Below are positions 15,962-40,009 of a DNA stretch of 64,000 bases, piece after piece. The translations under genes and the position numbers were made by a program. The notes under the pieces are model-generated. The model was given only the letters and a program-made list of their open reading frames with translations, had not been told where the DNA came from and did no database searches. Source of the DNA: an uncultured candidate division Zixibacteria bacterium (GTDB taxonomy: Bacteria > Zixibacteria > MSB-5A5 > UBA10806); assembly GCA_963801605.1 (NCBI GenBank), contig CAWDFP010000006.1, positions 288,001 through 352,000 of the forward strand. Direction: 5' to 3'. The number at the start of each line of letters is the position of its first letter. The stretch's first letter is position 1.

Positions 15962-16888
15962 ATGCGCGTGGAACAGACTATTTCGATAGCGACTAAATCA
16001 CAAGCAGTAAAGAAAATCAGGTTCAATAAAGTCTTTTGGGCTGTGCTTTATTCAGCCGCAATTATCGTATATATATTTATTTTTTATGGCGGAGCATCGT
16101 TTTACCTGACTCCCTATATGGATCGGCCTTACAGCGCGGCATACCGGTCGCTTCGACCGGCCGGATTTACGGGTCATGCTTACGGCGTGATCGGTTCAGC
16201 GTTGATGATTTTGATGCTTTCCTATTCTCTTCGAAAAAGAGTCAGGGTATTACGAAATTGGGGGATGTTAAGCCGCTGGCTCGATACTCATATCTTTTTT
16301 GGCATTGTGGGACCGTTGCTGGTCGTGCTGCATACAGCATTCAAGGTACAAGGGTTGGTAGCTGTAAGTTTTTGGTCGATGGTGGCGGTTACTATAAGCG
16401 GTATTTTCGGGCGTTATTTGTATCTTCAGATACCGCGTAATATCCAGGGCGACGAGCTAAGTATAAAAGAGCTCGAGGAATCAAACCTGCGCTATTCACA
16501 AGAGCTTCAGAAGGAATATAATCTCTCGGAAGAGATCGTCAAACGACTGGAGGCTCGTGAAACTTTTAAGATTTCCGAAAGCGCGGGCGCTTTCAAAATC
16601 CTGGCGACGGTGTTTGTAAATGATGCGCTCCGCCCTTTTACATTTTTTACCCGAAAGCGAGAGGAGCACGCCGATCTTAAACACCTTCCCCACGAACAGC
16701 AAAAGAAGATTGTTCGTATCTTACACCGGAAGTCGATTTTGACCAGGCGCGTGCAGCTTTTAAATCACATGCAGCGTCTTTTTCACTATTGGCATGTAAT
16801 CCACAAACCGTTTGCGATAATTATGTATTTGATAATGGTGATTCATATTACGGTGGCTGTCTGGACGGGGTATAAATGGATTTTTTAA
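15962..16888 (+). CDS. Integral membrane diheme cytochrome b-like protein (ferric-reductase-type His pairs)
   Basis: TM helices with His pairs 14 residues apart (WLDTHIFFGIVGPLLVVLH; WHVIHKPFAIIMYLIMVIH); first gene of the cytochrome operon. Confidence 0.7.
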   Translation: MRVEQTISIATKSQAVKKIRFNKVFWAVLYSAAIIVYIFIFYGGASFYLTPYMDRPYSAAYRSLRPAGFTGHAYGVIGSALMILMLSYSLRKRVRVLRNWGMLSRWLDTHIFFGIVGPLLVVLHTAFKVQGLVAVSFWSMVAVTISGIFGRYLYLQIPRNIQGDELSIKELEESNLRYSQELQKEYNLSEEIVKRLEARETFKISESAGAFKILATVFVNDALRPFTFFTRKREEHADLKHLPHEQQKKIVRILHRKSILTRRVQLLNHMQRLFHYWHVIHKPFAIIMYLIMVIHITVAVWTGYKWIF

Positions 16889-16902: not shown

Positions 16903-18589
16903 ATGCGTCAATTATCTCTGGTCGCTTTATTAATCTTTCTTGTTTCGGGAAATCTTTTGGCGCAGCTTTCACCCGGTGAGCTTTCACGGCCGCATGCATA
17001 TCTGGAAGGCCTGGAAAATTGCAATAAATGCCATGGTTTCGAAGAAAAACTTTCGCCGGACAAATGCCTGGCCTGCCATCTGTTTCTCGCCGCTCGAATC
17101 AAGGCCGGGCAGGGGCTTCATGCCAACACCGAACATTCCGATTGCGGAAGCTGTCACGTTGAGCATCAGGGGAGAAACTTTATTATCATACATTGGAATG
17201 GCGGCGAGGAAAAGTTCGATCATAATCAGACAGGTTACAAACTCGATGGTAAACATGCAAAATTAGAATGCCGGGCCTGTCATAAGAGTAATAATATAAA
17301 TCCAACAGCTAAGTTACAATCGGATAAGATAGATCTCAATCGCACCTTCCTTGGGACTCGAAAAGGATTGTCTTTCCTGCCATCCAGATGAACATCACGG
17401 ACAATTAGCAAAGGACTGCCTGACCTGTCATATTATGGCAGGATGGAAACCTGCCAGCGCTTTTGACCATTCCAAGGCCAAATATATCCTAACCGGCAAG
17501 CATACTGACGTAACTTGCGTGAAGTGCCATCCGTCGCTGACGAATGAAAATCAGCCATCAGGTAAAGCGTATACCAAATTTACCGGATTGCAATTCCAGA
17601 AGTGTTTGGACTGCCACAAAGACGTTCACAACAATAAATTTGGGCAGAACTGCGAGAGCTGCCATAATACATCAAGCTGGACAAGTGTAAATCAAACAAA
17701 ATTCGATCATTCGAAAACCCAGTATCCGCTCGAACTTAAACATGTTTCGGTTGCCTGTAACAAATGCCATGTTCCGGGAAAGCCGCTTGCCGGATTAAAA
17801 TTCAAGCTCTGCACAGATTGCCACGGCGATTATCATCGGGGAGATTTCGCATCCCGCGAGAAAAAGGGCGCTTGCGAAGAGTGCCATACATTGGCGGGAT
17901 TTGAGATCACTAAATTTACTGTCGACGAACATCAAAAAACAAAATATCAGTTGGCGGGAAGCCACCTGGCAGTCCCTTGCGACGGCTGCCACAAGAAGGT
18001 GATTCTCAACGGTAATAATGAGACGGTTCATATCAAATTCGAAAGCACTCGCTGCCAGGTCTGTCATACTGATCCTCATAAAGGAGCAGTTGACAATTAC
18101 ATGCCAAAGGGCGGATGTGAGTATTGCCACTTAGTAGAAAACTGGCGAGCCAGTTCTTATGATCATTCGCAAGCGAAATTTGTTCTCGACGGCAAACATA
18201 AGACGATCGCATGCAAGGCGTGCCATCAAAAAAAGGGTACTGATCCGCCTCTCTTACAGTTTACCGAACTGGCGCAAAATTGTCAGGGGTGCCATGATGA
18301 TATTCATCGCGGGCAGTTTGTCCAGGTTTCTTCCACAAAAGATGGCTCAAGCAAAGATACGGAATGCAATCGCTGCCATACAGCTGTTGCCTGGAAAACG
18401 CTTAAATTCGATCATAGCCGCGATTCCAAATTTATTCTCGATGGTGCTCATATCAAGCTTTTATGCATCCAATGTCATAAACCTGAAATGATAGACGGTA
18501 AAGCTTTTATAAAATATAAGCCGCTGGGGTCCAAATGCAGCGATTGCCACGGCGGTCAAACGATCCAAACCGGAGCGGGCCAATCATGA
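16903..18589 (+). CDS. 20-heme cytochrome c, split by a +1 frameshift at ~17353
   Basis: Signal peptide from ATG 16903; 4 CxxCH in the first ORF + 16 in the second. Deleting one G from CTTGGGACTC gives continuous RTFLGLEKDCLSCH. Confidence 0.85.
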
Positions 18590-21500
18590 AAAGGATAGCT
18601 ATAGCAACGGTTATTAGTCTGGCACTCGCCACGATACTGTTAGCGGCTAACGCTACTCAAAACCCTCACGGGAAACTTCAGTGGGAGTGCTATGATTGTC
18701 ACAATACAACGTCATGGACGTCCTTCAAAGAACCGATGACATTTCAGCATGACAAAACCGGTTTTCCTTTGGTGGGAAGACACGGTAAGGTCGATTGCGG
18801 CAATTGCCATAAAGATTTGAAGTTCTCCATGATAGGTTCCGCCTGCGCCGATTGCCATCCCGACATACACAGAGCGCAATTCGGGACAGATTGCGAAAAT
18901 TGCCATACGCCAAAAAACTGGGCAGACAATAAGGAAATAATTAATCTTCATGCCTCTAACGGCTTTCCATTGGTGGGAGTGCATGCGATTGCCGATTGTG
19001 ATGCCTGCCATATCGGCCAACAAAATAAAGAGTATGCCGGCACGCCAGTCGATTGCAAAGGGTGCCACGAAAGCAATTTCACATCTTCCACTGATCCCAA
19101 TCACAATCAGGCGGGATTTTCATCCGATTGTCAGAAATGCCATTTGCAGGTGGCATCAAGCTGGAAAAACACGACGTATCAGCACCCGGCGGCATTTGCT
19201 CTTCACGGAGGACATTTAACAATCGGCTGCAACAGTTGCCATACTCAAGGCTTCACCAATACAAGTTCGGATTGCTATTCGTGTCATCAAGCGCAGTTTA
19301 ATGCCACAACCAATCCGACACACGCCGCCTTTGGTTTCCCAACTACCTGTGCCGCCTGCCACAACGATGTCTCCTGGCAAGGAACACAATTCGATCATGT
19401 GCAGGCCAGCCAATTCGCCTTAAATGGGGCACATGCAACCGCACTGTGCACATCATGCCATATAAATAATCAACTAACGGGGCTGGCTCGCGATTGTTAT
19501 GGCTGCCACCAAAGAGATTTTTCGGGAGCCAACAACCCGGATCACGTCCAGGGCAATTTCCCTCAGACTTGTCTGACCTGCCATAATGAAAACGCCTGGT
19601 CACCGGCGACATTCGACCACAGTCAGTCGCGTTTCCCGCTTACCGGAGCCCATACCGCGCTTCAGTGCCAGGCTTGCCATGCAAACGGCTATCAGAATAC
19701 GCCATTCGATTGTTTCTCATGCCATCAGACTAATTATAATGGCGCCACGAATCCCAATCACGTTCAGAACAACTTCGATCACAACTGCGCAGTCTGCCAC
19801 AGCACATCAGCCTGGTCACCGTCGACTTTTAACCACAACAATACTACTTTCCCTCTGACCGGAGCTCACACGTCAATACAGTGCGTAGCCTGTCATTCGG
19901 CCGGTTACCAAAATACTCCGACGGATTGTTATTCATGTCATCAAGCGGCATTCAACGGAGTAAGCGATCCCAACCACGTGACGAATAATTTCAATCACGA
20001 TTGCACTCAATGCCATAACACCTCGGCCTGGACTCCAGCGACGTTCGATCACGCCAACACCCGATTCCCCTTGACGGGGGCGCATATTCCTCTGCAATGT
20101 ATCGCTTGCCATGCAAATGGATATCAAAATACGCCATACGACTGCTATTCATGTCATGCCAACGACTTCAACAACGCCACGGATCCAAATCATATCCAGA
20201 ATAATTTCAGCCATGACTGCACCCAATGCCACAATACATCAAGTTGGAGCGATGGTTTCAACCACAGTAATTTGGGATTTCCTTTAACAGGTGCGCATAC
20301 ATCCCTGCAATGTATCGCCTGTCATGCTAACGGGTATCAAAATACGCCTGCTGATTGTTATTCTTGCCATGAAGCGGCATTCAATGCGGTGACTGATCCA
20401 AACCACGTCCAAAACAATTTCAATCATGATTGTACTTTATGTCACAGTACGACTTCCTGGTCACCGGCAACATTCGATCATAGCTCAACCACGTTCCCTC
20501 TTACAGGAGCGCACACATCCGTTCAGTGCATAGCCTGTCATGCCAACGGCTACCAGAATACGCCTACGGATTGCTATTCATGTCATGAAGCAGCCTTCAT
20601 TGGAGTATCCGATCCTAATCACGTCACGAATAATTTTGATCATAACTGCACGATCTGCCACACTACCACCGGCTGGTCCCCGGCGACATTCGATCATAAC
20701 GGCACGGCTTTCCCTCTAACGGGAGCGCATATATCGCTACAGTGCATAGCCTGCCATGCCAACGGATATCAAAATACGCCGACGGATTGCTGGTCCTGTC
20801 ATCAGGCAGCCTACAATGGGGCAACCGATCCCAACCATGTTCAGAATAATTTTGATCATAATTGCACGATCTGTCACAGCACCACGGGCTGGTCGCCGTC
20901 GACATTCAATCACAACAATACCGCTTTTCCTCTAACGGGAGCGCATATATCGCTGCAGTGTATAGCCTGTCATGCCAATGGTTATCAAAATACACCTACT
21001 GATTGCTGGTCATGCCATTCCGGCGATTACAATCGAACCACGGATCCGAACCATGTTCAGAATAATTTCAGCCATGACTGTACCCAATGTCATAACACTT
21101 CAAGATGGGATGATGGTTTTAACCATGGCAATTTAGGTTTCCCCTTAACCGGAGCGCACTCGACGCTTCAATGTATCGCATGTCACGCTAATGGATATAT
21201 TAATACGCCTGCGGATTGTTATTCCTGCCATGAAACGGCATTTATTGGTGTAACCGATCCCAACCACGTTCAAAACAACTTTAATCATGATTGTACTCAA
21301 TGCCATACAACAAATGGCTGGACGCCAGCCACATTTGACCATGCAGGTACGCCATTCCCGTTAACCGGGGCACACGTTTCGGTGCAATGTGTAGCATGCC
21401 ATGCGAACGGTTATCAAAACACTCCGACGGATTGCTATGCCTGCCATCAAACAGCATACGATGGCGTAACCGATCCTAATCACGTTCAAAACAACTTCAA

Positions 21501-22857
21501 TCATGATTGTACTCAATGCCATACTACAAATGGCTGGACGCCGGCTACATTTGACCATTCAGGAACGCCATTTCCGTTAACCGGGGCACATGTTTCGGTG
21601 CAGTGCATAGCATGCCATGCGAATGGTTATCAGAATACTCCCACAGATTGCTATTCCTGCCATCAAACCGCATATAATGGCGTAACCGATCCCAATCACG
21701 TTCAAAATAATTTCGATCATAATTGCACGATCTGCCACACTACCACAGGTTGGTCACCATCGACCTTTAATCACGCTAATACTCCATTCCCATTAACAGG
21801 AGCACACACATCATTGCAGTGCGTAGCCTGCCACGCTAATGGATATCAAAACACTCCGACAGATTGCTATTCCTGCCATCAAACTGCCTATAACGGAGTG
21901 ACTGATCCTAACCACGTTCAAAACAATTTTGATCATAACTGCACGACCTGTCATACCACTTCAGGCTGGTCACCGGCCACATTCGACCATAGCAATACTA
22001 CTTTCCCCTTAACAGGAGCGCACACATCGTTGCAATGCGTAGCCTGTCATGCCAACGGATATCAAAATATACCAACCGATTGTTATTCCTGCCATCAAAC
22101 TGCCTATAACGGAGTAACTGATCCCAATCACGTTCAAAATAATTTCGATCATAATTGCACGATCTGCCACACCACTACTGGTTGGTCACCGGCCACATTC
22201 GACCATAGCAATACTACTTTCCCCCTAACAGGAGCGCACACTTCTTTACAATGCGTGGCCTGTCATGCCAACGGATATCAAAATATACCAACCGATTGTT
22301 ATTCCTGCCATCAAACTGCCTATAACGGAGTGACTGATCCCAATCACGTGTCTGATAATTTCAGCTATATTTGTACGCAGTGCCATACTACAACAGGTTG
22401 GTCCCCGGCTACGTTTAATCATAATCAGACATCCTTCCCGCTAACGGGCGCGCATGTGAGCCTGCAATGCCTGAGTTGCCACGCCAATGGATTCGACAAC
22501 ACGCCGACCGATTGTTTTGCCTGCCATCAAAGCGATTTTAATGGCGCCACAAATCCAAACCATCAGAGCGCTGGTTTCCCGACTCAATGCGTAATGTGTC
22601 ATAACACCAGCGCCTGGAGCCCATCAACATTTAATCACGACGCCCAATATTTCCCAATCTACTCAGGAAATCACCGGGGACGATGGAGTACCTGCTCGCA
22701 GTGCCATACCAATCCCTCGGATTTTAGCACATTTGAATGTATCCTCTGTCATGAGCATAACCGCACTGACACAGATTCGCACCATCAGGGCGTGCCGGGC
22801 TATCAGTACAACAGCCAGGCCTGCTATAATTGCCACCCCAGAGGAAGCGGCGGATGA
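18586..22857 (+). CDS. Giant 58-heme cytochrome c of tandem triheme repeats
   Basis: ATGA overlap with the upstream stop; signal peptide MKRIAIATVISLALATILLAANA; 58 CxxCH counted by hand in 1423 aa. Confidence 0.93.
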   Translation: MKRIAIATVISLALATILLAANATQNPHGKLQWECYDCHNTTSWTSFKEPMTFQHDKTGFPLVGRHGKVDCGNCHKDLKFSMIGSACADCHPDIHRAQFGTDCENCHTPKNWADNKEIINLHASNGFPLVGVHAIADCDACHIGQQNKEYAGTPVDCKGCHESNFTSSTDPNHNQAGFSSDCQKCHLQVASSWKNTTYQHPAAFALHGGHLTIGCNSCHTQGFTNTSSDCYSCHQAQFNATTNPTHAAFGFPTTCAACHNDVSWQGTQFDHVQASQFALNGAHATALCTSCHINNQLTGLARDCYGCHQRDFSGANNPDHVQGNFPQTCLTCHNENAWSPATFDHSQSRFPLTGAHTALQCQACHANGYQNTPFDCFSCHQTNYNGATNPNHVQNNFDHNCAVCHSTSAWSPSTFNHNNTTFPLTGAHTSIQCVACHSAGYQNTPTDCYSCHQAAFNGVSDPNHVTNNFNHDCTQCHNTSAWTPATFDHANTRFPLTGAHIPLQCIACHANGYQNTPYDCYSCHANDFNNATDPNHIQNNFSHDCTQCHNTSSWSDGFNHSNLGFPLTGAHTSLQCIACHANGYQNTPADCYSCHEAAFNAVTDPNHVQNNFNHDCTLCHSTTSWSPATFDHSSTTFPLTGAHTSVQCIACHANGYQNTPTDCYSCHEAAFIGVSDPNHVTNNFDHNCTICHTTTGWSPATFDHNGTAFPLTGAHISLQCIACHANGYQNTPTDCWSCHQAAYNGATDPNHVQNNFDHNCTICHSTTGWSPSTFNHNNTAFPLTGAHISLQCIACHANGYQNTPTDCWSCHSGDYNRTTDPNHVQNNFSHDCTQCHNTSRWDDGFNHGNLGFPLTGAHSTLQCIACHANGYINTPADCYSCHETAFIGVTDPNHVQNNFNHDCTQCHTTNGWTPATFDHAGTPFPLTGAHVSVQCVACHANGYQNTPTDCYACHQTAYDGVTDPNHVQNNFNHDCTQCHTTNGWTPATFDHSGTPFPLTGAHVSVQCIACHANGYQNTPTDCYSCHQTAYNGVTDPNHVQNNFDHNCTICHTTTGWSPSTFNHANTPFPLTGAHTSLQCVACHANGYQNTPTDCYSCHQTAYNGVTDPNHVQNNFDHNCTTCHTTSGWSPATFDHSNTTFPLTGAHTSLQCVACHANGYQNIPTDCYSCHQTAYNGVTDPNHVQNNFDHNCTICHTTTGWSPATFDHSNTTFPLTGAHTSLQCVACHANGYQNIPTDCYSCHQTAYNGVTDPNHVSDNFSYICTQCHTTTGWSPATFNHNQTSFPLTGAHVSLQCLSCHANGFDNTPTDCFACHQSDFNGATNPNHQSAGFPTQCVMCHNTSAWSPSTFNHDAQYFPIYSGNHRGRWSTCSQCHTNPSDFSTFECILCHEHNRTDTDSHHQGVPGYQYNSQACYNCHPRGSGG
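19597..22614 (+). repeat. 14 in-frame tandem repeats of 216 bp (two of 213 bp), each encoding a triheme module
   Basis: Consensus W(S/T)PATFDHxxTxFPLTGAHxSLQ-CxACH-ANGYQNTPTD-CYSCH-QxAYNGVTDPNHVQNNFDHN-CTxCH; span 3018 bp = 14x216-6. Confidence 0.9.
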
Positions 22858-22881
22858 GACCTGAGATGGTAAATTAATGTT

Positions 22882-23667
22882 ATGAACATATTGTTATTGG
22901 TTTTCCCATTAGTATTGGCTCTTGGCGGAGAGAAAATAGAAACTCCGCACAAGGTTTTAAGGTTTGAGTGTAACGATTGTCATAGTTCCACAACCTGGCG
23001 GGAGGTCAAATTCGATCACGCTAAAACGGACTTTGCCCTTGAAGATCGGCATACGAAAGTAAAATGCGTCCAATGCCATTCGCTTGAGGATTTTCGTGTT
23101 GCGGGAAGTGATTGCGTTTCCTGTCATGATGATATTCATCAGGGCAAACTGGCCCATACTTGTGAACAATGCCACAGCGCCCGCGGGTGGTCCGTCTTCA
23201 ATACGTTGAAGGTTCATGCCAATACATCATTTCCCCTGATTGGCGCCCATGCCAGGCTCGATTGCCGCGCGTGTCATATCAGCGAAATAGAGGGAGAGTA
23301 TTCATTCTTGAAATCGGAGTGCATATTTTGTCATAAAACCGATTTTGAACAAGCTCAAAGTCCACCGCACACGCAGATGGGCCTGGGAACTCGCTGCGAG
23401 GATTGCCACTTTATGGTAAGTTGGCAACCAGCCAATTTTAGCGGACACGACTCGTTCTTTCCGATTTTTTCCGGCAGGCATGCCGGTGTCTGGACAAGCT
23501 GCGAAATTTGCCATGCCAGTTCGCAGGACTATACGATATTTGATTGTTTTAATTGTCACGAGCATTCCAAGGTTCGAATGGATGGTGCACATTCGGATAT
23601 CAGGAATTATGTATATGAAAGCGGCGCATGTTATTCTTGCCATCCTGGTGGCAGCGCTGGAGGATGA
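22882..23667 (+). CDS. Decaheme cytochrome c, short paralog of the 58-heme protein
   Basis: Signal peptide; 10 CxxCH; N- and C-terminal segments align by eye with the ends of the giant cytochrome. Confidence 0.9.
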   Translation: MNILLLVFPLVLALGGEKIETPHKVLRFECNDCHSSTTWREVKFDHAKTDFALEDRHTKVKCVQCHSLEDFRVAGSDCVSCHDDIHQGKLAHTCEQCHSARGWSVFNTLKVHANTSFPLIGAHARLDCRACHISEIEGEYSFLKSECIFCHKTDFEQAQSPPHTQMGLGTRCEDCHFMVSWQPANFSGHDSFFPIFSGRHAGVWTSCEICHASSQDYTIFDCFNCHEHSKVRMDGAHSDIRNYVYESGACYSCHPGGSAGG

Positions 23668-23669
23668 TC

Positions 23670-25271
23670 ATGAAAATATTAGCGATGCTCTTATTGCTAT
23701 TTTCGCCAGCCTATCTTCTGGCTCAAAAGACTACGTGCCATGTCAAGTATGTCTCCGGAGAAAGCATTTATATCGATGCCGGGAACGCTGACAGCCTGGC
23801 TGTAGGAGATACTCTTCGGATTGTGCACGGCGATAGCGTCACGGCAACGCTTGAGATATCTTTTGTAGCCGAAAATTCCTCGTCGTGCAAAATATTGAGT
23901 TCGTCCGGAGAAATCAGGGTAGGCGATTCGATTCAATTATCGCAAAAGCCTGTTATTGCCAAATCGATGCAGCCTGCGATTGATACCACCCAATCAGTTG
24001 CCATTCCCACGCCGGCACCGGCAGTGCCGGAACAAGCCGCAAAACCGAAGCCTGCCAGAGTCGATGGCAGCGTAGCGTTTCAGCTTTTTCGATTTACCGA
24101 TCGCAGCCCGTCCCACCTTAATTTTACCCAGCCGACCATGCGATTTAATTTAAAGGCAAACAAGCTTTTTGGCCAGGATATCACCCTTACTATCCGAACC
24201 GATAGCCGCTATAATATGCGCAGCCGCGCTTATAATATTGATGTACCTAAGAACGAATGGCGAAATCGAATATATCAGTTTTCTCTAGGCTTTGCCGGAG
24301 ACAACGCGCCATATAATTTCGAGGTTGGCCGAATCCTTTCAAATAAGGTCAGCGGAGTAGGGTATATCGATGGCTTTATGGCACAAAAAAGGGTGGGAAA
24401 TGGTTTTCAAATAGGAGGGTTTGGGGGAACTCAACCGGAGTGGCAATATTCCAATTTCCAAACCTCGCTTCAAAAATATGGGATTTTCGTAAGTTATGTA
24501 TCGGGTTCTTATCAGAAAAAACGCTTTGAATCAGCGGTGGCAGCCACTGGCGAATATCACGGTCAGATAGTTAGCCGGGAGTACTTCTTTATGAAAAACA
24601 ACCTCAATATTGGGGGCTCCTGGAACTTCTATCAAAGCAGCGAAATCGACATGAATCGCTCCTGGCGTAAGGCGAGAACTGGCAAGAGCTTATCGATAAC
24701 AAACCTGTTTCTTTCGGCGCGAGGCCGCCTATTTAAAAGGCTATCGGCATCTTTAAGTTATGATAACCGTAAAAATTATTGGACTTACGAGACGAGGTCT
24801 CTGGCCGACAGTCTGTTCGATAGTGTTCTTCGTCAGGGGATACGGACGGATTTATCGCTTCGGGCCGGAAAGGGGTTTTCGATCTTTACTAACTTTGGTT
24901 ACAATAAAAGATCAACCGATACCAGGGCCACTTACTCTTATGGAGGCGGCGTCAATAAGAGTAATTTCTTATCAACCAAGCAATTTTTTAACAGCCAGAT
25001 AACCGGTTTCTCGGGTCCTTTCACCGACGGATACAATCTATCTTTAACCGTTGGCCGATATCTGTGGGCGGGAAATATGCTCTCCCTAGGCTACGGTGCT
25101 TATGCCTATAAATTCAACGCCGCTGGAATCAGCAGACTTAACCAGTGGTTTCAAACCAACACGCAGTTCGATATAACTCATAGCGCCTATTTTTCCGGTA
25201 CATTCGAATACGATACCGGCAAGGATACCAAGGGCGAACGTCTGATTGGTGAATTAGGGTATCGTTTTTAA
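23670..25271 (+). CDS. Putative outer-membrane beta-barrel protein
   Basis: Signal peptide, small N-terminal beta domain, Pro/Ala linker, then ~400 aa of alternating amphipathic strands ending GELGYRF (terminal Phe, BAM-type); GGAGGA RBS. Confidence 0.75.
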   Translation: MKILAMLLLLFSPAYLLAQKTTCHVKYVSGESIYIDAGNADSLAVGDTLRIVHGDSVTATLEISFVAENSSSCKILSSSGEIRVGDSIQLSQKPVIAKSMQPAIDTTQSVAIPTPAPAVPEQAAKPKPARVDGSVAFQLFRFTDRSPSHLNFTQPTMRFNLKANKLFGQDITLTIRTDSRYNMRSRAYNIDVPKNEWRNRIYQFSLGFAGDNAPYNFEVGRILSNKVSGVGYIDGFMAQKRVGNGFQIGGFGGTQPEWQYSNFQTSLQKYGIFVSYVSGSYQKKRFESAVAATGEYHGQIVSREYFFMKNNLNIGGSWNFYQSSEIDMNRSWRKARTGKSLSITNLFLSARGRLFKRLSASLSYDNRKNYWTYETRSLADSLFDSVLRQGIRTDLSLRAGKGFSIFTNFGYNKRSTDTRATYSYGGGVNKSNFLSTKQFFNSQITGFSGPFTDGYNLSLTVGRYLWAGNMLSLGYGAYAYKFNAAGISRLNQWFQTNTQFDITHSAYFSGTFEYDTGKDTKGERLIGELGYRF

Positions 25272-25301: not shown

Positions 25302-26624
25302 ATGGAATCTGCAGCAATTTGGGTTATTACAGCTATTATAATTATAGGGATTATAACGCCCTATTTTGTCAAGTTCCGTAGAAGTCAGAAACACGATTTA
25401 GAGCGTATCAAGGAAGCACAACTCCTCGGATTGGACCGTCCCAGGGGACAATATCCTTTGATCGACATGTCGTTTTGTATCGGATGCGGCTCTTGTGTCA
25501 GAGCGTGCCCGGAGGAGGACGTTCTGGGCATCGTATTTGGGCGGGCGATGGTTGTCAATGGACAACGCTGTGTGGGGCATGGATACTGCGAAGCCGCCTG
25601 CCCGGTTGGGGCGCTGAAAGTGGGATTGGGCGATATTAAAACCCGACCCGATATTCCCATAACCGACGAATATGGTCAGACAAATATACCCGGCATCTAC
25701 ATAGCGGGCGAATTAGGAGGATTATCGCTTATAAGAAACGCGATAGATCAGGGACATAAGGCGATTAACCATATTTTTCAAAGCGGACGGCGCACGAATT
25801 CAAACGATATCTATGATGTTATCATCATTGGCGCCGGTCCAGCGGGGATGAGTGCGTCACTGGCGGCCATAAAGTATAATTTGCGATATGTTACGTTCGA
25901 CCAGCAACAGCCCGGCGGCACGATCCTTCAATACCCCCGTCAAAAATTGGTGATGACTCAACCGGTGGAAATTCCACTTTACGGCAAGCTCGATGCTGAG
26001 GAATATTCCAAGGAAGCGCTTCTTGAAATTTGGCAGGATGCAGTTCAAAAAAACAGCGTTTCCCTTAAATGCGACGAAAAAGTGGAACGGGTAATCACAG
26101 GTGACGGAATTATCGAAATTCAGACCCCAAAAGGAGGTTATCGAGCCGCGAATGTTATCCTGGCAATCGGACGACGCGGTACGCCAAGAAAACTGGGAGT
26201 GCCCGGGGAGGATCTTCCAAAGGTGATGTATCAACTCGTTGATGCTCAGTCGTATCAGAATAAAAATATCCTAATTGTAGGTGGTGGTGACAGTGCGGTT
26301 GAGGCGGCGGTCGGCCTGGCAAGGCAGAAAGGCAACAAGGTCACGATTTCATATCGTCAGGCTAAATTTGCGCGGGTCAAAAAGAAAAACGAGGACCGCA
26401 TTAATGAAATAATAGCGCAAAAAAAAGCCCGTCCAATATTCTTTTCGAATGTTCTCGAGATCAGAGAAAAAACGGCGCTGCTCAGGGTTGGCGACAATGA
26501 GAATCTCGAGATCCCCAACGATTATGTTTTCATATTTGCCGGGGGCGAACCGCCGTTTAAGATGCTAAATGAGATCGGAATAGTATTCGGGGGAGAGGCT
26601 AAGCCGATCCCTCTGGCATCATAA
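25302..26624 (+). CDS. Membrane-anchored 4Fe-4S ferredoxin / FAD-dependent NAD(P)H oxidoreductase (thioredoxin-reductase-like fold)
   Basis: N-terminal TM; CIGCGSCVRACP and CVGHGYCEAACP; TNIPGIYIAGE; IIGAGPAG; GRRG; VGGGDSAVE. Confidence 0.88.
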   Translation: MESAAIWVITAIIIIGIITPYFVKFRRSQKHDLERIKEAQLLGLDRPRGQYPLIDMSFCIGCGSCVRACPEEDVLGIVFGRAMVVNGQRCVGHGYCEAACPVGALKVGLGDIKTRPDIPITDEYGQTNIPGIYIAGELGGLSLIRNAIDQGHKAINHIFQSGRRTNSNDIYDVIIIGAGPAGMSASLAAIKYNLRYVTFDQQQPGGTILQYPRQKLVMTQPVEIPLYGKLDAEEYSKEALLEIWQDAVQKNSVSLKCDEKVERVITGDGIIEIQTPKGGYRAANVILAIGRRGTPRKLGVPGEDLPKVMYQLVDAQSYQNKNILIVGGGDSAVEAAVGLARQKGNKVTISYRQAKFARVKKKNEDRINEIIAQKKARPIFFSNVLEIREKTALLRVGDNENLEIPNDYVFIFAGGEPPFKMLNEIGIVFGGEAKPIPLAS

Positions 26625-32990: not shown

Positions 32991-33441
32991 AAATCTCTCC
33001 TGGCTCTATTTAATGTTTCGCATAACATCCGTATATAACCTGTTTTTGCAATTACGGATATATACCTTACGATTATCGGCATGTTTTCAATAACATTACA
33101 ATACTTATTATAACAAGATCATACCATGTTTACCTCTCTTGTACATTTTTAATTGAAACTCGCGAGTCGAATTTTCATCAATTTCTTATTATATATTGAC
33201 ATGGCTTCCCATTAATCTTTATATAAAGGCAGTGCGGTTTCCGAACAACGGGCGGATTTACGCGCGTTGTGAGCTTCAAAAAGGCTCCATGAAGAACTTA
33301 AATCGAAGACGGGCAAAAGATGCGGTAATTTTGAATCTCGTCGAATTAAATCAGCGGGAAAATTAACAATAAATGATAGAAAACACAGTTGCTAATTTAG
33401 AACTGTGTGTTTCCTCGGTTAACAACGTCAGGAGTGTACTT

Positions 33442-36400
33442 ATGCGAAAAGTATCAAGGTTTTTAATTCTCTCTTTGGTGTTATTGGGAATTGCAGCCAG
33501 CGCCTTTGCCGGGCAGTACAGCGAGGCATTTCCGCAATATTTGGCCAGTCACAAATCCGGCACCATGGTGCCGGCTATAATTACGATGGCTGACAGGCTG
33601 GACTTAGGTGCTTTGCAGAATAACCTTTCTGCGACACATGCTGATAGAAGGCTCTGGCATGAAACGGTCGTGCGGGCTCTGCAGGCCAAAGCCACTGAGA
33701 GCCAGGCCGATTTATTGGCGGCACTTTCCGTTATGACCCAGAATGGCGAAGTAGAGAGTTACTCGTCCCTCTGGATTGGTAATATGGTCATTGTAACGGC
33801 AACTCCCGAGGCCCTTGACCAGTTAGTGTCGCGAAACGATGTCATGCTGGTCAGCCCTGATTATTTAATCGAAAGCATTGAGCCAGTTCATACGGGCGGA
33901 AACAGCCCCACCATAGCAGGCCATGAGATTGGCGCCACACGGCTTCATGTGCCAGAAGTATGGGCTATGGGGATAACCGGAGAAGGACGGCTTGTAAGCC
34001 ATTTAGATACCGGAGTACAAGGTAGTCACCCGGCCCTGGCTGCCAGATGGAGAGGCGTAGCAGATACGCGCTACGAGGGCCATCCGCAATGGGCCTGGTA
34101 CGATCCCAGACCTCCACATACAACATTTCCTACCGCTTTTGGCGCACATGGAACCCATACCATGGGGACGATATGCGGCAGAAGCACATCCACACCTGAC
34201 ACAGTAGGCGTTGCTATTGACGCGCAGTGGATTTCAGCTGGCGTAATTGACCGTGTCGATATTCCCACAACAATGGCGGATGCTATAACTGCATTACAAT
34301 GGATTGCGGATCCCGATGCAGATCCGTCCACAGTTTGGGATGTGCCCGACGTGTGTTCCAACTCCTGGGGTGTGAGGACTGACTTTGGCTATCCTCCGTG
34401 CGATGAAACTTTGTGGGAAGTTATCGATGGCGCCGAAGCGGCCAGTGTAGTGGTCGTATTCGCCGCCGGTAATGAAGGATATAGCGGCGCGCGAACGATC
34501 CGCAGACCTGCCGATAGGGCAACCACGGAATTGAATTGTTTTTCCGTGGGCGCCGTGAACGGCGATAACCCGAGTCTCCCAATAGCGGATTTTTCCTCGC
34601 GGGGACCGGCAAATTGCACACCATCCGGAAATGATACTTTCAAACCTGAAGTGGTCGCTCCGGGAGTTAACGTGCGCTCTTCGGTTCCCGGTGGTGGCTA
34701 TGAAAGCGGCTGGGATGGCACCTCGATGGCCACACCGCACATCGCGGGTATCATAGCATTAATGAGGCAGGCCAACCCTAATTTAACAGTTGATCAGATT
34801 AAACAGATTTTACTCGACACCGCCACAGATTTAGGAACCAGCGGTGAAGATAATGCCTATGGCAAGGGAATCGCGAACGCTCTGGCGGCCGTGCAAATGG
34901 CATTATCCTATTTGGACGGTTGGGGAACGCTTGGCGGAGTAATAACGGATCAGGCTTCCGGCACGCCCATTCAGGGAGCGAGAGTATCGGTAATCGGCCG
35001 TCCCTGGGGTGCTTCTTCCCGAGGCAACGGCGAATATTTCATGTTCGCCCCAGCCGATACTTTGTGGCAAATTAAGGTTGAATATCCGCCCACGCACCTC
35101 TCGGTTTTCGATACCGTAACGATTGCCGAAAACGATACAATCATCAGGAATTATGCGCTGGAGGGTAAAGTAGCGGTTCTGCTTAAGGCATCATTTGCTA
35201 ATCCCGCTAATGTTGATTACCGCACTTTCTTCATTAAGGGAAGTTGGGATGCTGAAGGCATGTACGATTCCACCTGGTCGGGTCCGCAGATCGAGATAAA
35301 AGACGATGGCGTTTCTCCGGATCAGACTATACACGACGGTATCTTCACAGGTAAAGTGTTATTGAGAATAGACGGCGTTCATACCTACCGTTGGGCGCTT
35401 TATAGTGAGAGCAATGGCGGTGACGCCGCTCGCTTGCAGCCTGGCGCCGACATCCAGATTCCCAACGCTACGCCGCCAGTAATTCCAACTCTCGCGGTTA
35501 ATCCATCCGGATCAGATAATAATTGGATAATTTCCGCAATTGGCGATAACAGCTTAAATCTCGACCTGGTTCGTAATTTCGGCAATGTCGCCACAAAATG
35601 GGGCGCGGCTTGCACTCTTTACACTCCCAACACTTACACTTTTAGATTTAAGGTGATGCATTCCGATAGCGCCAGTTATGGATCCGGAGGTATCGGCGGA
35701 CCGGACCTGCATTTCACACCGCCAATTACAGGGTCTTACGTATTCGTATTTAATGACGCGACGGATATGTACTATGTTTTGATGAGCGGTACGCAAGGTC
35801 CTCCAACAACTTTAGCGGCAACATCGGGTCTCGATCATCATGTAACTCTCACCTGGCGGGCGCCTACAGCTCCGGAACCGCCTTTGATTGTCCCACCGGA
35901 TAACGGCACACCAAGAATCATGGATACAGAAGTATTGGCGGGTTACAATGTTTATCGCGATACCCTGCCCTACCCATTCGATCGAAATTTATTGGTGAAC
36001 AATAGCCTTATCACGGTGGTCAATTATGATGATCACGGTGGACTCCAGGGTCATTTAACAAACGGCAAAACCTACTACTATCAAACCTCGGCAGTTTATG
36101 ATATCGGAGGCGGACAACTCGTAGAAGCCGGCCCATCGAATCAAGCGCTGGCTACGCCTCAGAATCATCCTCCGGCCACACCGACATTCCTGATTGCCGG
36201 CAGTGCCGGTCGCGTAATCAATCTCAAATGGAATTTCCTAAATGATATTGGCGATCTGGATCATTTCAGCGTCGAGCGTATGTTGATGCCATCAGGCGCC
36301 TGGACCGAAGTAGGCACAACCGTTGATACTGTTTTCTCGCAAACGATTCCTGACGGCGAGGACGGTTCTTACGGATATCGAGTCACCGCAATTGACGACG

Positions 36401-39400
36401 GGACGCCGGCATTATCATCGACGCCATCTCAACCGGCCTATGCTATGGTCGGGCATTTAGCGCCTGGCACTTTAAGAGCTACAAGCGGCGAGGAGTTCCA
36501 GGTTCCAGTACATTGGGCACTTCCCGGCTCCTGGACGGTCAATGGCATTCTCGATCCCGAAACGCCGATTATTTATAGCGATGAAGATGGTTCCGCAGAT
36601 ACTCCCGGCATAATGAATCGCGGTGAACCGGATGCTGCCGGATATCTCTGGATAGATTCCGATGAGCCCGGTGGACCGACATATCAATGGCGAGATATTA
36701 CCGGAATCGGCCAGCAGATTCCGATGAATGGAGACAACCAGTTGTTGGGTTCCTATAACATCGGTTTTAGTTTCCCCTTCTACGGAAACGATTTTAATAC
36801 CTTTAGAATTTGCTCCAATGGTTGGTTAAGTTTTACGGATAGTACTCATAATTACAGCAGCAACCGGGCGCTTCCGAGTACTCAATATGCACCCTTCAAT
36901 CTGGTCGCCCCGTTCTGGGATGACCTGACATTCATTGGCGGCGGACAACTTTGGTATTATTCCGACGGCGTTGAATGTATCATTTCTTACATCGAAGTTC
37001 CGCATGTTGGTTCGGGGGGACCATATTCGTTCCAGGCGATCCTGAGAAGTTCAGGCGCTATTATCTATCAATATGGTTCAATGGGAACAGTCTTGAATTC
37101 CGCCACGATAGGAATTCAAAATGGAACCGGCACAATTGGCCTGCAGGCGGTTTACAATGCCAATTATGTTCATGATAATATGGCAATACAGCTGAATAGA
37201 CCTGCCGACGGTTTCAGCCCCGCCCATTTTAAATTATACCGCTCGACGACAAGCCCCGTGCCTTTGGATGACAGCCATCTGATCGCAGGAAGCATTCCCG
37301 GAATTCAAGCGGGTTACGTGGATCGCCTTAACATTCAAAACGGAATACCGTACTTTTACAAAGTAACAGCGGTATGGCCCGATTCAATCGAATCAGTCGC
37401 ATCCAATGAAACTACCGGCACCGCCGCTAATCATCCGCCGATAGCGCCAACCAACCTTGCCGGCTTGCTAAATGGCCGCACGATTAATCTGCACTGGTCA
37501 TTTGCCAATTTGGTAGGAGATTGGGATCATTACAATATCTATAAAAGAGCTCTTCCACTTGGTGTCTGGCTATTGACCAGCACAACTAACGATACTCTGG
37601 GAGCAGTTACTATCCCGGCGGGTCAGGACGGCGTTTATGAGATCGCTGTTACCGCGGTAGATAACGGAACACCGCAACTTGAATCTCGATATTCCCGAGC
37701 GGTTACCTTCAATGTCGGAAATCTGGCGCCAGTCCAGCTTGCGGCCAGAAGCGATCACGATCTTGCCGTTCCGCTAAACTGGATGCATCCCGGCACATGG
37801 CTTATGGATGACCACGGAGATCAGCCGCTTCCCGGCATAGCAAGTATGAATGGCTCAGATCCCTCCGCTCTGCCAACACTTTTCGGCCGCGGCGGCCCCG
37901 ATGGCGCCGGCTATATCTGGGTTGATTCCGACGAACCGGACGGACCTGATTATCAGTGGCGGGATATAACGGCGATTGGCCAACAAATCCCGATGATTGG
38001 CGATAACCAGATATTGGGCGCCTTCAATATCGGCTTTAGTTTCCCGTTTTACGGAAACAACTTTAATACCTTCAGGGTCAATTCCAATGGCTGGTTGAGC
38101 TTTACAGATAGCATTCACACATACAATACCAATCGCGCCATTCCAAGCACAGTCTCCGCACCCTTCAATCTGGTGGCACCGTTCTGGGACGATCTCACTT
38201 TCGTTGGGGGCGGACAACTCTGGTACTATAGTGACGGCGCGGAATGCATTATCTCATACATAGCCGTGCCCCGCGTAAGTTCAGGAGGACCCTGCACATT
38301 CCAGGTAATACTCAGGAGCTCAGGCACAATTGTCTATCAGTATGGCGCTATGGGAACAGTTCTTAATTCCGCTACCGTTGGCATTCAAAACTCAGACGGC
38401 ACAATCGGCCTTCAAGTTGTTTGCAATGGCGATTATATGCACGACAATATGGCGATCCAATTGCAGAATCTTTCTGAAGGCATATCCCCAGTTCATTACA
38501 AACTTTATAGATCAACATCGTCTCCTGTACCGGTCGATCCCGGTCATTTGATAACCTCTGCTATCGCCGGGGATCGCCTGAGTTATACTGATACTGGTAG
38601 TGTGGTAAATGGAACGAGATACTATTATGTCCTGACGGCTGTCTGGCCTGATTCTGCGGAATCACCGGCCTCAAATGAAACCAGTGCTATTCCCGTTATG
38701 GGCGCCAGGATGACCCTGAATCCAACATCCCTTGACCTCTCGATCGAAAGCGGACGCACTATTCTGGATACGCTCAATATCGCTAATCCCGGCGGATTGA
38801 GCTTAAACTGGAATCTCTTCACGCAATCCGATCTTATCCTCTCCGTTCCTAAAACGGCCGATAGAAGCGGCGTTATATTGGAATCTTCCAGCCGATGCCG
38901 GAGAGGGTTCGACCGATAACCCGCCGGAGCTATTCGGAAGAGGCGGGCCAGATGGATTTGGTTATACCTGGGTTGATTCCGATGAGCCGGGCGGTCCGAC
39001 TAATCATTGGGTTGATATTACAACTCGCGGCCAGCAGCTCACAATGATTAACGACGATAATCAGGGGCCGTTTGCCATGGGAATCCATTTCCCGTTCTAT
39101 GGCAACACTTTCGACAGCGTACGCATCTGTTCTAATGGCTGGATAAGCTTTAACAGCACCGTCAGATCGGCTGCCAACTATCCATTACCGAGCACCTCGG
39201 CGCCGGTGAACCTGATTGCGCCATTCTGGGATGATCTTGATCCTTCCGCCGGCGGGCAGATGTGGTATTACACCAATCCTGAATCCACGGTAGTCTCCTG
39301 GATCGATGTGCCCTATCGTACGACGGGCGGCCCTTATACATTCCAGGTGGTGTTGCTCTCAACAGGCGGTATTTACTTCAATTATGGCAGTATGAATACT

Positions 39401-40009
39401 CCGCTAAATGGCGCCACTATTGGAATTCAAAACGCCGCCAGAAATATCGGTTTGCAGGTAGCTTACAACCAAGCTTACGTGCATGGCAATATGACCGTGA
39501 AGATTAATCACAGTTGGGTGACCGCATCCCCCGGCTCAGGGGTAATTGCAGCCGGAGCTAATTCGGATATCGTCGTAACTTGCGATGCGTCATCTTTGGG
39601 CGCAGGCACATACACCGGCTCACTGGCGATTTCCGGTCAGGATCAATTCCACGTTCTGGCGGTGCAAATTGTACCCGTTACTTTGCATGTAACGCCCCAG
39701 GGCATAGAGGATAATGCCTCTAATATGCCAAGCGAATTCGAACTTTCGCAAAACTATCCCAATCCTTTCAATCCGACTACCGAGATAGGATTCGCTTTAC
39801 CGACGAAATCTTTTGTTTCTCTCGAGGTTTTCAATGTCCTGGGACAAAAGGTAAAAACGCTGATTAATGCCGACATGGAAGCGGGATTTAGATCAATCAC
39901 CTGGAACGGCACTGACGAATCCGGGGCGTCGGTTACGTCGGGTATCTACTTCTACAAGCTGGCTGCCGGAAATAAAATATTCACTAAGAAGATGACATTC
40001 CTGAAGTAA
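33442..40009 (+). CDS. Large secreted S8 (subtilisin/bacillopeptidase F-like) protease with Fn3 domains, three repeated NIDO-like domains and a C-terminal sorting domain; +1 frameshift at ~38830-38890
   Basis: Signal peptide; triad HLDTG, HGTHTMG, GTSMATPH. The frame of ORF 39044 extends upstream through LFGRGGPDGFGYTWVDSDEPGG, matching repeats 1 and 2; ends ELSQNYPNPFN...GIYFYKL...KKMTFLK. Confidence 0.88.

Follow-up and report, generated by a model that had tools for sequence, protein, structure and literature searches.

The bacterial nanowires known so far are assembled by polymerization of small cytochromes. Another group of long multiheme proteins has been described in the PCC3 porin–cytochrome systems, which were defined in Proteobacteria by an inner-membrane protein (IMP), periplasmic and extracellular multiheme cytochromes and a porin, and which contain internal repeats and reach 85 hemes; the IMPs of PCC3 and PCC4 carry an SGXXG motif and two WX3HX13H motifs (He et al. 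2017, PMC5566968). Their periplasmic subunit is reported to hold 21, 24 or 27 hemes and the extracellular one 10 to 35 (Hoover et al. 2023, PMC10734462). The larger cytochrome varies, with CxxCH domains either inserted or deleted (Arbour et al. 2020, PMC7399161). Acquisition of heme-binding peptides as modules has been put forward in print as a general theme (10.1101/2025.05.29.656830). Here we compare these systems with a locus in a 64,000-nucleotide stretch, termed the window, of an uncultured candidate division Zixibacteria bacterium (assembly GCA_963801605.1, contig CAWDFP010000006.1, positions 288,001 to 352,000). The locus is a six-part cluster, all on the + strand, encoding a membrane protein, a split multiheme cytochrome, a giant cytochrome, a decaheme cytochrome, an outer-membrane protein and an iron-sulfur (Fe-S) flavoprotein. 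The giant and the decaheme share a single module plan, in which heme number rises as 1+3n, and appear to be old paralogues.

By count of CxxCH motifs, the giant open reading frame (ORF; 18586..22857, 1423 aa) holds 58 hemes and the decaheme ORF (22882..23667, 261 aa) holds ten. Each protein starts with a single heme, after which come triheme modules of about 72 residues (216 bp), 19 in the giant (G1 to G19) and three in the decaheme (D1 to D3). When the decaheme modules were aligned with those of the giant, D1 matched G1 best (score 155; all others 60–130) and D3 matched G19 (212; others 52–109). The best match of D2 was G2 (166), followed by G18 (153) and the rest (52–146), a slight preference given that by identity G11, G15 and G18 (39%) exceed G2 (35%). 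The ambiguity is settled by hidden Markov models (HMMs) specific for first (A), second (b), internal (B) and last (C) modules and trained on 27 other proteins, which with clear margins assign the layout A-b-B16-C to the giant and A-b-C to the decaheme, making the second decaheme module a b. BLASTP of the decaheme against the giant places the two top local matches at the C end (210 bits) and the N end (170 bits), with internal matches at or below 150 bits. Thus, a preliminary description in which the decaheme corresponds to the first seven and last three hemes of the giant is confirmed, and the caps do resemble each other more than they resemble internal modules, clearly for D1 and D3 and thinly for D2. 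Its arithmetic (7+3=10 and 10+16x3=58) is also correct; because the decaheme itself comprises three modules, the series 10+3n proposed there is the same as 1+3n. The boundary between the seven and the three could equally be placed one heme earlier.

In the giant, the signal peptide, heme 1 and modules A and b (hemes 1–7) occupy 18586..19143, the 16 B-type modules (48 hemes, 216-bp period) 19144..22602, and the C-type terminal module (hemes 56–58) 22603..22857. The corresponding parts of the decaheme lie at 22882..23409 (signal peptide, heme 1, A and b; hemes 1–7) and 23410..23667 (C; hemes 8–10). Both proteins have Sec-type signal peptides, as judged by eye, and neither contains a Cys outside the CxxCH motifs. 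The giant uses 24 residues per heme and is 36% Thr/Ser/Asn/Gln overall. Composition differs along the chain, with 1.2% Lys/Arg and 32% Thr/Ser/Asn/Gln in B runs and 7% and 24% in A-b; the values for the 20-heme cytochrome encoded upstream, here called the partner, are 13.3% and 20%. An assembly artefact as the source of the 16 repeats was considered and rejected, since the repeats have diverged (G5 to G17 share 60–88% DNA identity, and the longest exact repeat is 74 bp) and independent 58-heme relatives exist, the A-b-B16-C layout recurring in six other distinct proteins; on these sequences such an artefact is unlikely. Giant modules 8 and 12 (window positions 20233–21306) have a one-residue deletion in common and are 78% identical in DNA, which suggests duplication of a four-module block inside the B run.

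A shared plan does not make the giant a recent derivative of its neighbor. The ends of the giant and the decaheme in the window are 40% identical to each other, whereas to the corresponding ends from another genome of the genus they are 66% and 61% identical, respectively. In a FastTree phylogeny of end modules (180 rows), the decaheme clade has 37 rows, every one with ten hemes, and the giant falls in a separate clade of 51 rows with 10 to 73 hemes. The majority of ten-heme rows came from a length-limited search; among longer proteins, a search returned a single member of the decaheme clade, P0048, in which a partner cytochrome is read through into a decaheme that retains its own signal peptide. 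A recent duplication into giant and decaheme, which would join them in one clade, was rejected by an approximately unbiased (AU) test of 30 of the 180 rows spanning the groups under LG+G4 (p-AU 7.1e-65). The earlier proposal that the giant is the adjacent decaheme with 16 inserted modules therefore has to be abandoned: the ends are only about 40% identical, fall in separate clades and are denied a common one by the AU test. Judged by this phylogeny, the two are old paralogues, of which the decaheme is locked in length and the giant is free to vary.

The module plan extends well beyond the window. Relatives were collected from 77 loci of other phyla, 72 barrel-gene loci of the window's phylum, 57 metagenome loci and 147 database proteins; the counts exclude duplicates, ORFs that contain N runs or run off a contig, and loci L078–L102, which are short versions of later loci. 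The gene for the outer-membrane barrel is present in 85 of 285 genomes of the phylum, and the cluster is also found in many other phyla. Among proteins chosen solely by the presence of both end motifs, the heme number is 1+3n in 116 of 119, ranging from 10 to 73 with almost all steps represented (57/59 from phylum loci, including the two of the window, 7/8 from other phyla and 52/52 long database proteins). A wider set conforms in 204 of 223 cases. Eleven of its 19 exceptions were inspected: seven fit once CX4-5CH motifs are counted (giving up to 82 hemes), one has a mutated motif, and three are off register. The other eight lie in loci with split ORFs or are themselves partner-type proteins. 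These relatives are not independent of each other; nonetheless, the 1+3n rule spans several phyla, and the predicted steps of three among homologues are borne out.

Close pairs of relatives show where length is gained. In pairs with 73 and 67, 22 and 19, 55 and 52, or 58 and 55 hemes, both ends are 85–99% identical, module for module, and the additional whole modules are located within the B run. Together with the module typing, these pairs uphold the idea that length is set by module count. Of 204 proteins obeying the rule, 199 begin with A, 202 have b second and 196 end in C, with no A at an internal position; the figures for the 177 outside the training set are 172, 175, 169 and zero. Module b occurs beyond position 2 in four of the 204, and C is internal or tandemly repeated in 29; it precedes B or C in cis, never A. 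A sister lineage of the decaheme lengthens by added C modules (A-b-C3 to A-b-C14), and many giants of Bacteroidota type have C modules interspersed along the B run. Going by these typings, C is a third module type that is usually chain-final but no strict cap, and A is the sole strictly terminal module. Length is therefore gained after b, by B modules, or after C, by C modules, and in every layout A-b alone lies at a constant distance from one terminus.

Several loci depart from the common layouts. Three from Bacteroidota (L062, L054 and L066) have two or three long genes of 1+3n type in a row (for example 46, 59–60 and at least 25 hemes). In L006 and L010, long cytochromes without the usual A-b close with a last module of a CX3CH/CX5CH variant; the gene after each encodes ten hemes and does not belong to the main decaheme subfamily. 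Two Chloroflexia loci (L001 and L011) combine an IMP with a single 29–30-heme chain that has a C-like end, and have no barrel match within the locus.

Gene content indicates how the long and short forms relate to the barrel. The 72 phylum loci have one intact A...C gene in 54 cases, two in one case and none in 17, the last owing to frameshifts, gaps and contig ends. The 54 include L105, in which a decaheme lies behind a frameshifted giant; in L115, the sole A...C gene has just ten hemes. Among 26 metagenome loci of the decaheme subfamily, many of them near-duplicates, the barrel gene is directly 3′ of the decaheme in 23 and the contig ends first in the other three; a long cytochrome lies upstream of the decaheme in 12. 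Barrels of these decaheme-subfamily loci cluster in sequence, with long-gene-only loci L107, L110 and L112 falling among them, and by this grouping the two-gene layout is an inherited subtype. The smallest units pair a cytochrome with a barrel: L180, L181 and L183, which represent one sequence type, have a decaheme and a barrel with no other cluster gene nearby, and L137–L139 have a long A-b-Cn gene and a barrel without the membrane protein or the partner. Because either form can thus stand alone beside a barrel, what stays constant, as far as gene order can tell, is a barrel paired with a 1+3n cytochrome, which may be of either length. The preliminary description had allowed that short and long versions bind the same partner or chain head to tail. 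The former fits these gene arrangements better, and chaining would not be required, as most relatives have a single such gene. A full single-gene cluster was also found in a cultured strain, on plasmid pEMTOL02 of Emticicia oligotrophica DSM 17448 (L232; NC_018749.1, 78197–89995), in the order ccsA, IMP, flavoprotein, 23-heme gene, 40-heme gene and barrel, pointing to lateral spread of the conduit.

The outer-membrane protein (23664..25271, 534 aa) has no match to any Pfam family. Its AlphaFold2 model (mean pLDDT 88) comprises an N-terminal β domain of about 75 residues, a flexible linker and a predicted 22-strand barrel. The top fold matches are 22-strand barrels of TonB-dependent receptors (Z 18.9, rmsd 5.2, 369 residues aligned, 7% identity); MtrB is not among the matches listed, a result still compatible with kinship to MtrB. 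The N-terminal domain (window positions 23724–23950) shows a weak match to ExtJ of the Geobacter ExtHIJKL porin–cytochrome operon (19.9 bits versus a cut-off of 52.5). A complex prediction for the decaheme with the barrel scored 0.55 versus 0.00 for the best of three controls, which weakly supports contact between the two. Of reference pairs, 116 of 157 solved ones attain the mark for this score, as do 2 of 215 mismatched ones, and scores of 0.60 or less comprise just 18 of the solved pairs and both mismatches. Runs shared at least 72% of contacts with a partner pLDDT of at least 66 and used custom alignments; solved porin–cytochrome complexes such as MtrAB may have aided the score. On sequence grounds, A-b would be the likeliest barrel-binding piece, because it alone stays at a fixed distance from an end. 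An earlier suggestion that conserved caps act as docking interfaces holds in part: the end modules are indeed position-specific, but A and b are no more conserved than mid-run B modules and C is not confined to the end.

The reading that we favor, with moderate confidence, is that the giant and the decaheme are the long and short outer wires of a PCC3-like conduit, their A-b heads seated in copies of the 22-strand barrel. Electrons would enter the membrane cytochrome b from quinol, or from NAD(P)H via the Fe-S flavoprotein, and would then pass to the 20-heme partner and across the periplasm. Intact 20-heme partner orthologues are present in 51 of the 58 phylum loci that hold the gene, and this near-fixed length suits a periplasm-spanning role. 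From the partner, electrons might move to the A-b head in the barrel and along the B run, an uncharged spacer wire, ending at one or more C modules as putative contacts with an external acceptor or donor; a cell carrying the two genes would make a long wire and a short one. MtrA spans about 100 Å with 10 hemes (PMC5566968), and at this scale of about 1 nm per heme the giant, if straight, would reach some 50–60 nm. Extracellular PCC3 cytochromes show the same bias toward small polar residues as the B runs (He et al. 2017, PMC5566968). A more elaborate version, which we offer as a tentative possibility, envisions a widespread family of single-chain nanowires with gene-encoded reach, in which each cytochrome, already folded, would pass outward through its own 22-strand barrel and stop where A-b lodges in it. 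Each B module would add three hemes (for totals of 10 to about 82), C modules would serve as contact pads at the tip, repeated or spaced, and two-gene cells would display a stub and a mast from one kind of socket.

Several observations weigh against A-b heads in the barrel with outward wires. The complex prediction, made with the decaheme only, yielded no interface and so does not give which end enters the barrel. Conservation provides no signal of an interface either: mean identity outside Cys and His in 40 orthologues is 43.5% for A, 45.2% for b, 37.7% for the first B, 44.4% for middle B, 54.9% for the last B and 54.2% for C. The small N-terminal domain of the barrel could itself fill the pore. 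No lipobox is present in the giant or the decaheme, a loose pattern occurring in 7 of 204 relatives, and a domain search recognized no secretion tail in either protein, leaving export past the periplasm unexplained. PCC3 itself is called untested in a 2025 preprint (10.1101/2025.02.27.639646). Finally, the giant and the decaheme are retained together in many loci (12 of the 26 from metagenomes), which is also explicable by a series arrangement. In such wiring, a length-locked decaheme would be embedded in the barrel as is MtrA, and the giant would dock on it end to end. The constancy of ten hemes in all 37 rows of the decaheme clade, as opposed to 10 to 73 in the giant clade, speaks for this arrangement, as do the position of the decaheme directly before the barrel (23 of 26) and behind a long cytochrome (12), the clustering of barrels from these loci, and the fact that the weak complex prediction was obtained with the decaheme. 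We nevertheless judge it rather unlikely, given that the giant retains an intact A-b and C where one joint would do, that the long gene stands alone in L107, L110 and L112 despite barrels that group with those of decaheme-subfamily loci, and that C never precedes A in cis among the 204 proteins. An extra His in module C, a possible ligand for a neighbor's heme, is found in 179 of 197 cases and is not invariant; the candidate role of a spare His as an inter-subunit heme ligand was not kept. In a 29-row decaheme alignment, 11 non-motif His are invariant, for ten hemes.

The conservation values also bear on whether the end modules are structural caps, as known from other repeat proteins, that seal the stack of hemes, provide its terminal His ligands and keep the hemes shielded, while partners bind along the rod or elsewhere. 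This is what might be expected from A and b without excess conservation over B, a last B conserved like C, and C that functions internally in 29 of 204 proteins. Purely structural caps are still unlikely, since A is never internal and b strays past position 2 in just four proteins, the charged make-up of A-b sets it apart from the B run, and a barrel partner requires some fixed contact. Alternatively, the giant could remain in the periplasm as an electron store, or capacitor, or as a wire for lateral distribution, the barrel then being reached only by short forms or by the 20-heme protein. Its Sec-type signal without a lipobox or known export tag would suit such a location, its length varies freely between close relatives, and storage has been proposed for PCC3 cytochromes (PMC10734462, PMC7399161). 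We consider this quite improbable, because in most loci the long protein is the sole candidate barrel partner and its gene lies directly before the barrel, because L137–L139 have a long cytochrome and a barrel in the absence of the membrane protein and partner, and because the composition resembles that of predicted extracellular PCC3 cytochromes.

The remaining genes of the cluster also lie on the + strand. The IMP (15962..16888, 308 aa), a predicted quinol-active di-heme cytochrome b, carries two WX3HX13H motifs and SGXXG. It is homologous to IMPs of Gallionellaceae loci, with phmmer E values of 1e-16 to 1e-32 against most proteobacterial IMPs. The partner gene (16903..18589) is frameshifted into ORFs with 4 and 16 hemes near 17350–17355, inside a short G run (window positions 17340–17360). 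Because orthologues in relatives are intact and similar breaks in these genes are seen in several low-contig genomes, the frameshift is likely a sequencing error. The ATG of the giant overlaps the partner stop codon, the start at 18586 agrees with that in the protein collection, and the barrel start overlaps the decaheme stop. An idea that the end of the partner and the start of the giant form two halves of one module was dropped as register-dependent, since Pfam and PDB matches favor a register in which both chains are complete. P0033, P0043 and L051 are single chains running from a partner-type head to a C module, compatible with contact between partner and wire. The final gene (25302..26624) encodes a protein with a hydrophobic N terminus, a 4Fe-4S dicluster domain (Pfam Fer4) and a thioredoxin-reductase-like flavoprotein domain (Pyr_redox_3), and it adjoins the cluster in most loci of both types. 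In P0019, P0025, P0060 and P0063, an Fe-S flavoprotein and a 1+3n cytochrome share one frame with a hydrophobic, signal-like joint, reflecting either a membrane-spanning fusion or a lost stop codon; one source is named Thermoanaerobaculia.

The source genome encodes cytochrome c assembly proteins, and a scan of it found 24 ORFs with multiple CxxCH motifs. These include a second giant cytochrome of a different repeat type (G000:C6:773354-788173; 42 hemes, 1047 aa), adjoined by several genes with three to seven hemes. Elsewhere in the window (33373–40009) are a large S8 peptidase with a NIDO domain and then a NIDO/FlgD protein with a tail of the type IX secretion system type.

In contrast to nanowires polymerized from small cytochromes, this family would place a heme chain of up to tens of nanometers in one polypeptide with a clean modular grammar, from 10 to more than 70 hemes. 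With the barrel gene in 85 of 285 phylum genomes and the cluster in many phyla, it may be a common, uncharacterized route by which electrons are exchanged with other cells or minerals. As the minimal, tractable member of the family, the decaheme is suited to structural work. A cultured carrier, Emticicia oligotrophica, makes the PCC3 idea directly testable and would likewise allow experiments on the route by which a multiheme giant that is no lipoprotein passes the outer membrane.

Among solved structures, the best sequence match is a c7-type dodecaheme (3OV0, E 2.5e-8), with short matches driven by CxxCH spacing; Pfam Cytochrome_C7 exceeds its cut-off on whole-protein sums. This structure and the related entries 3OUE and 3OUQ, which we take to be GSU1996, resemble the window proteins in their tandem triheme units and elongated multiheme chain. 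To our knowledge, that family has neither position-specific end modules nor a barrel partner. A heme-free model of the decaheme (pLDDT 81, pTM 0.52) gave no Foldseek match at E≤0.001 and none at Z≥2 in a wide fold search; models of multiheme proteins built without heme contain little secondary structure, so the lack of a match does not indicate a new fold. The MtrCAB and MtoAB systems likewise place a decaheme gene directly before a β-barrel gene and use a cytochrome-in-porin design, but the barrel is different and the window system lacks a lipoprotein outer cytochrome. Against TIGR03508 (MtrA/DmsE), the giant and the partner score 41.9–49.4 bits, below the cut-off of 192, and the decaheme has no match. 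Unlike MtrC/OmcB-type lipoproteins, neither the giant nor the decaheme has a lipobox Cys after the signal peptide.

A literature search, which covered subscription journals only to a small extent, found no description of the A-b-Bn-C grammar or of a length-locked decaheme. The system was likewise not found in the accessible text of Shi 2014 (PMC4245776), the Caldithrix genome report (PMC5317091) or Garber 2024 (PMC11475568), the supplements of which may list the family. Thus, variable heme number in PCC3 is already published and the module grammar apparently is not. A Lentimicrobium "giant PCC cluster" in a Bacteroidota genome, described as having 61- and 20-heme cytochromes and no synteny to characterized PCC modules (Nat Commun 2026, PMC13013709), is probably the same system, judged from heme numbers alone: 61 equals 1+3x20, and the second protein has the 20 hemes of the partner. 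The main text of that report gives no module analysis and no decaheme.

The closest known relatives are the PCC3 systems. Like theirs, the IMP of the window has about 300 residues, SGXXG and two WX3HX13H motifs. The partner is homologous to 21-, 24- and 27-heme proteins with the same head and A-like modules in loci titled Gallionellaceae, whose assignment to PCC3 was made by title, layout and heme numbers rather than by published accessions; the window-type partner has 20 hemes as compared to 21–27. Both systems have a large repeat-built cytochrome of variable heme number, rich in small polar residues, with about 24 residues per heme and its gene before that of the barrel. The PCC3 porin and the window barrel show at most distant similarity (profile E values down to 2.4e-9 in a small search; hhalign probability 67.5% with 20% identity over 194 columns), the latter having 534 residues and 22 predicted strands and the former about 710–900 residues and up to 42 strands. 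The outer cytochromes differ as well. The two proteobacterial examples inspected (L009 and L049) are diheme-repeat chains without module C, and most proteobacterial PCC3 outer cytochromes gave only A/B-like matches of about 35–55 bits, with no match to module C; homology along the repeat to these cytochromes was not found. The window system also has a second, length-locked decaheme paralogue and is found outside Proteobacteria. Judged by sequence and analogy, the cluster would function as PCC3 does, and we regard it as a sister variant with a different outer cytochrome.

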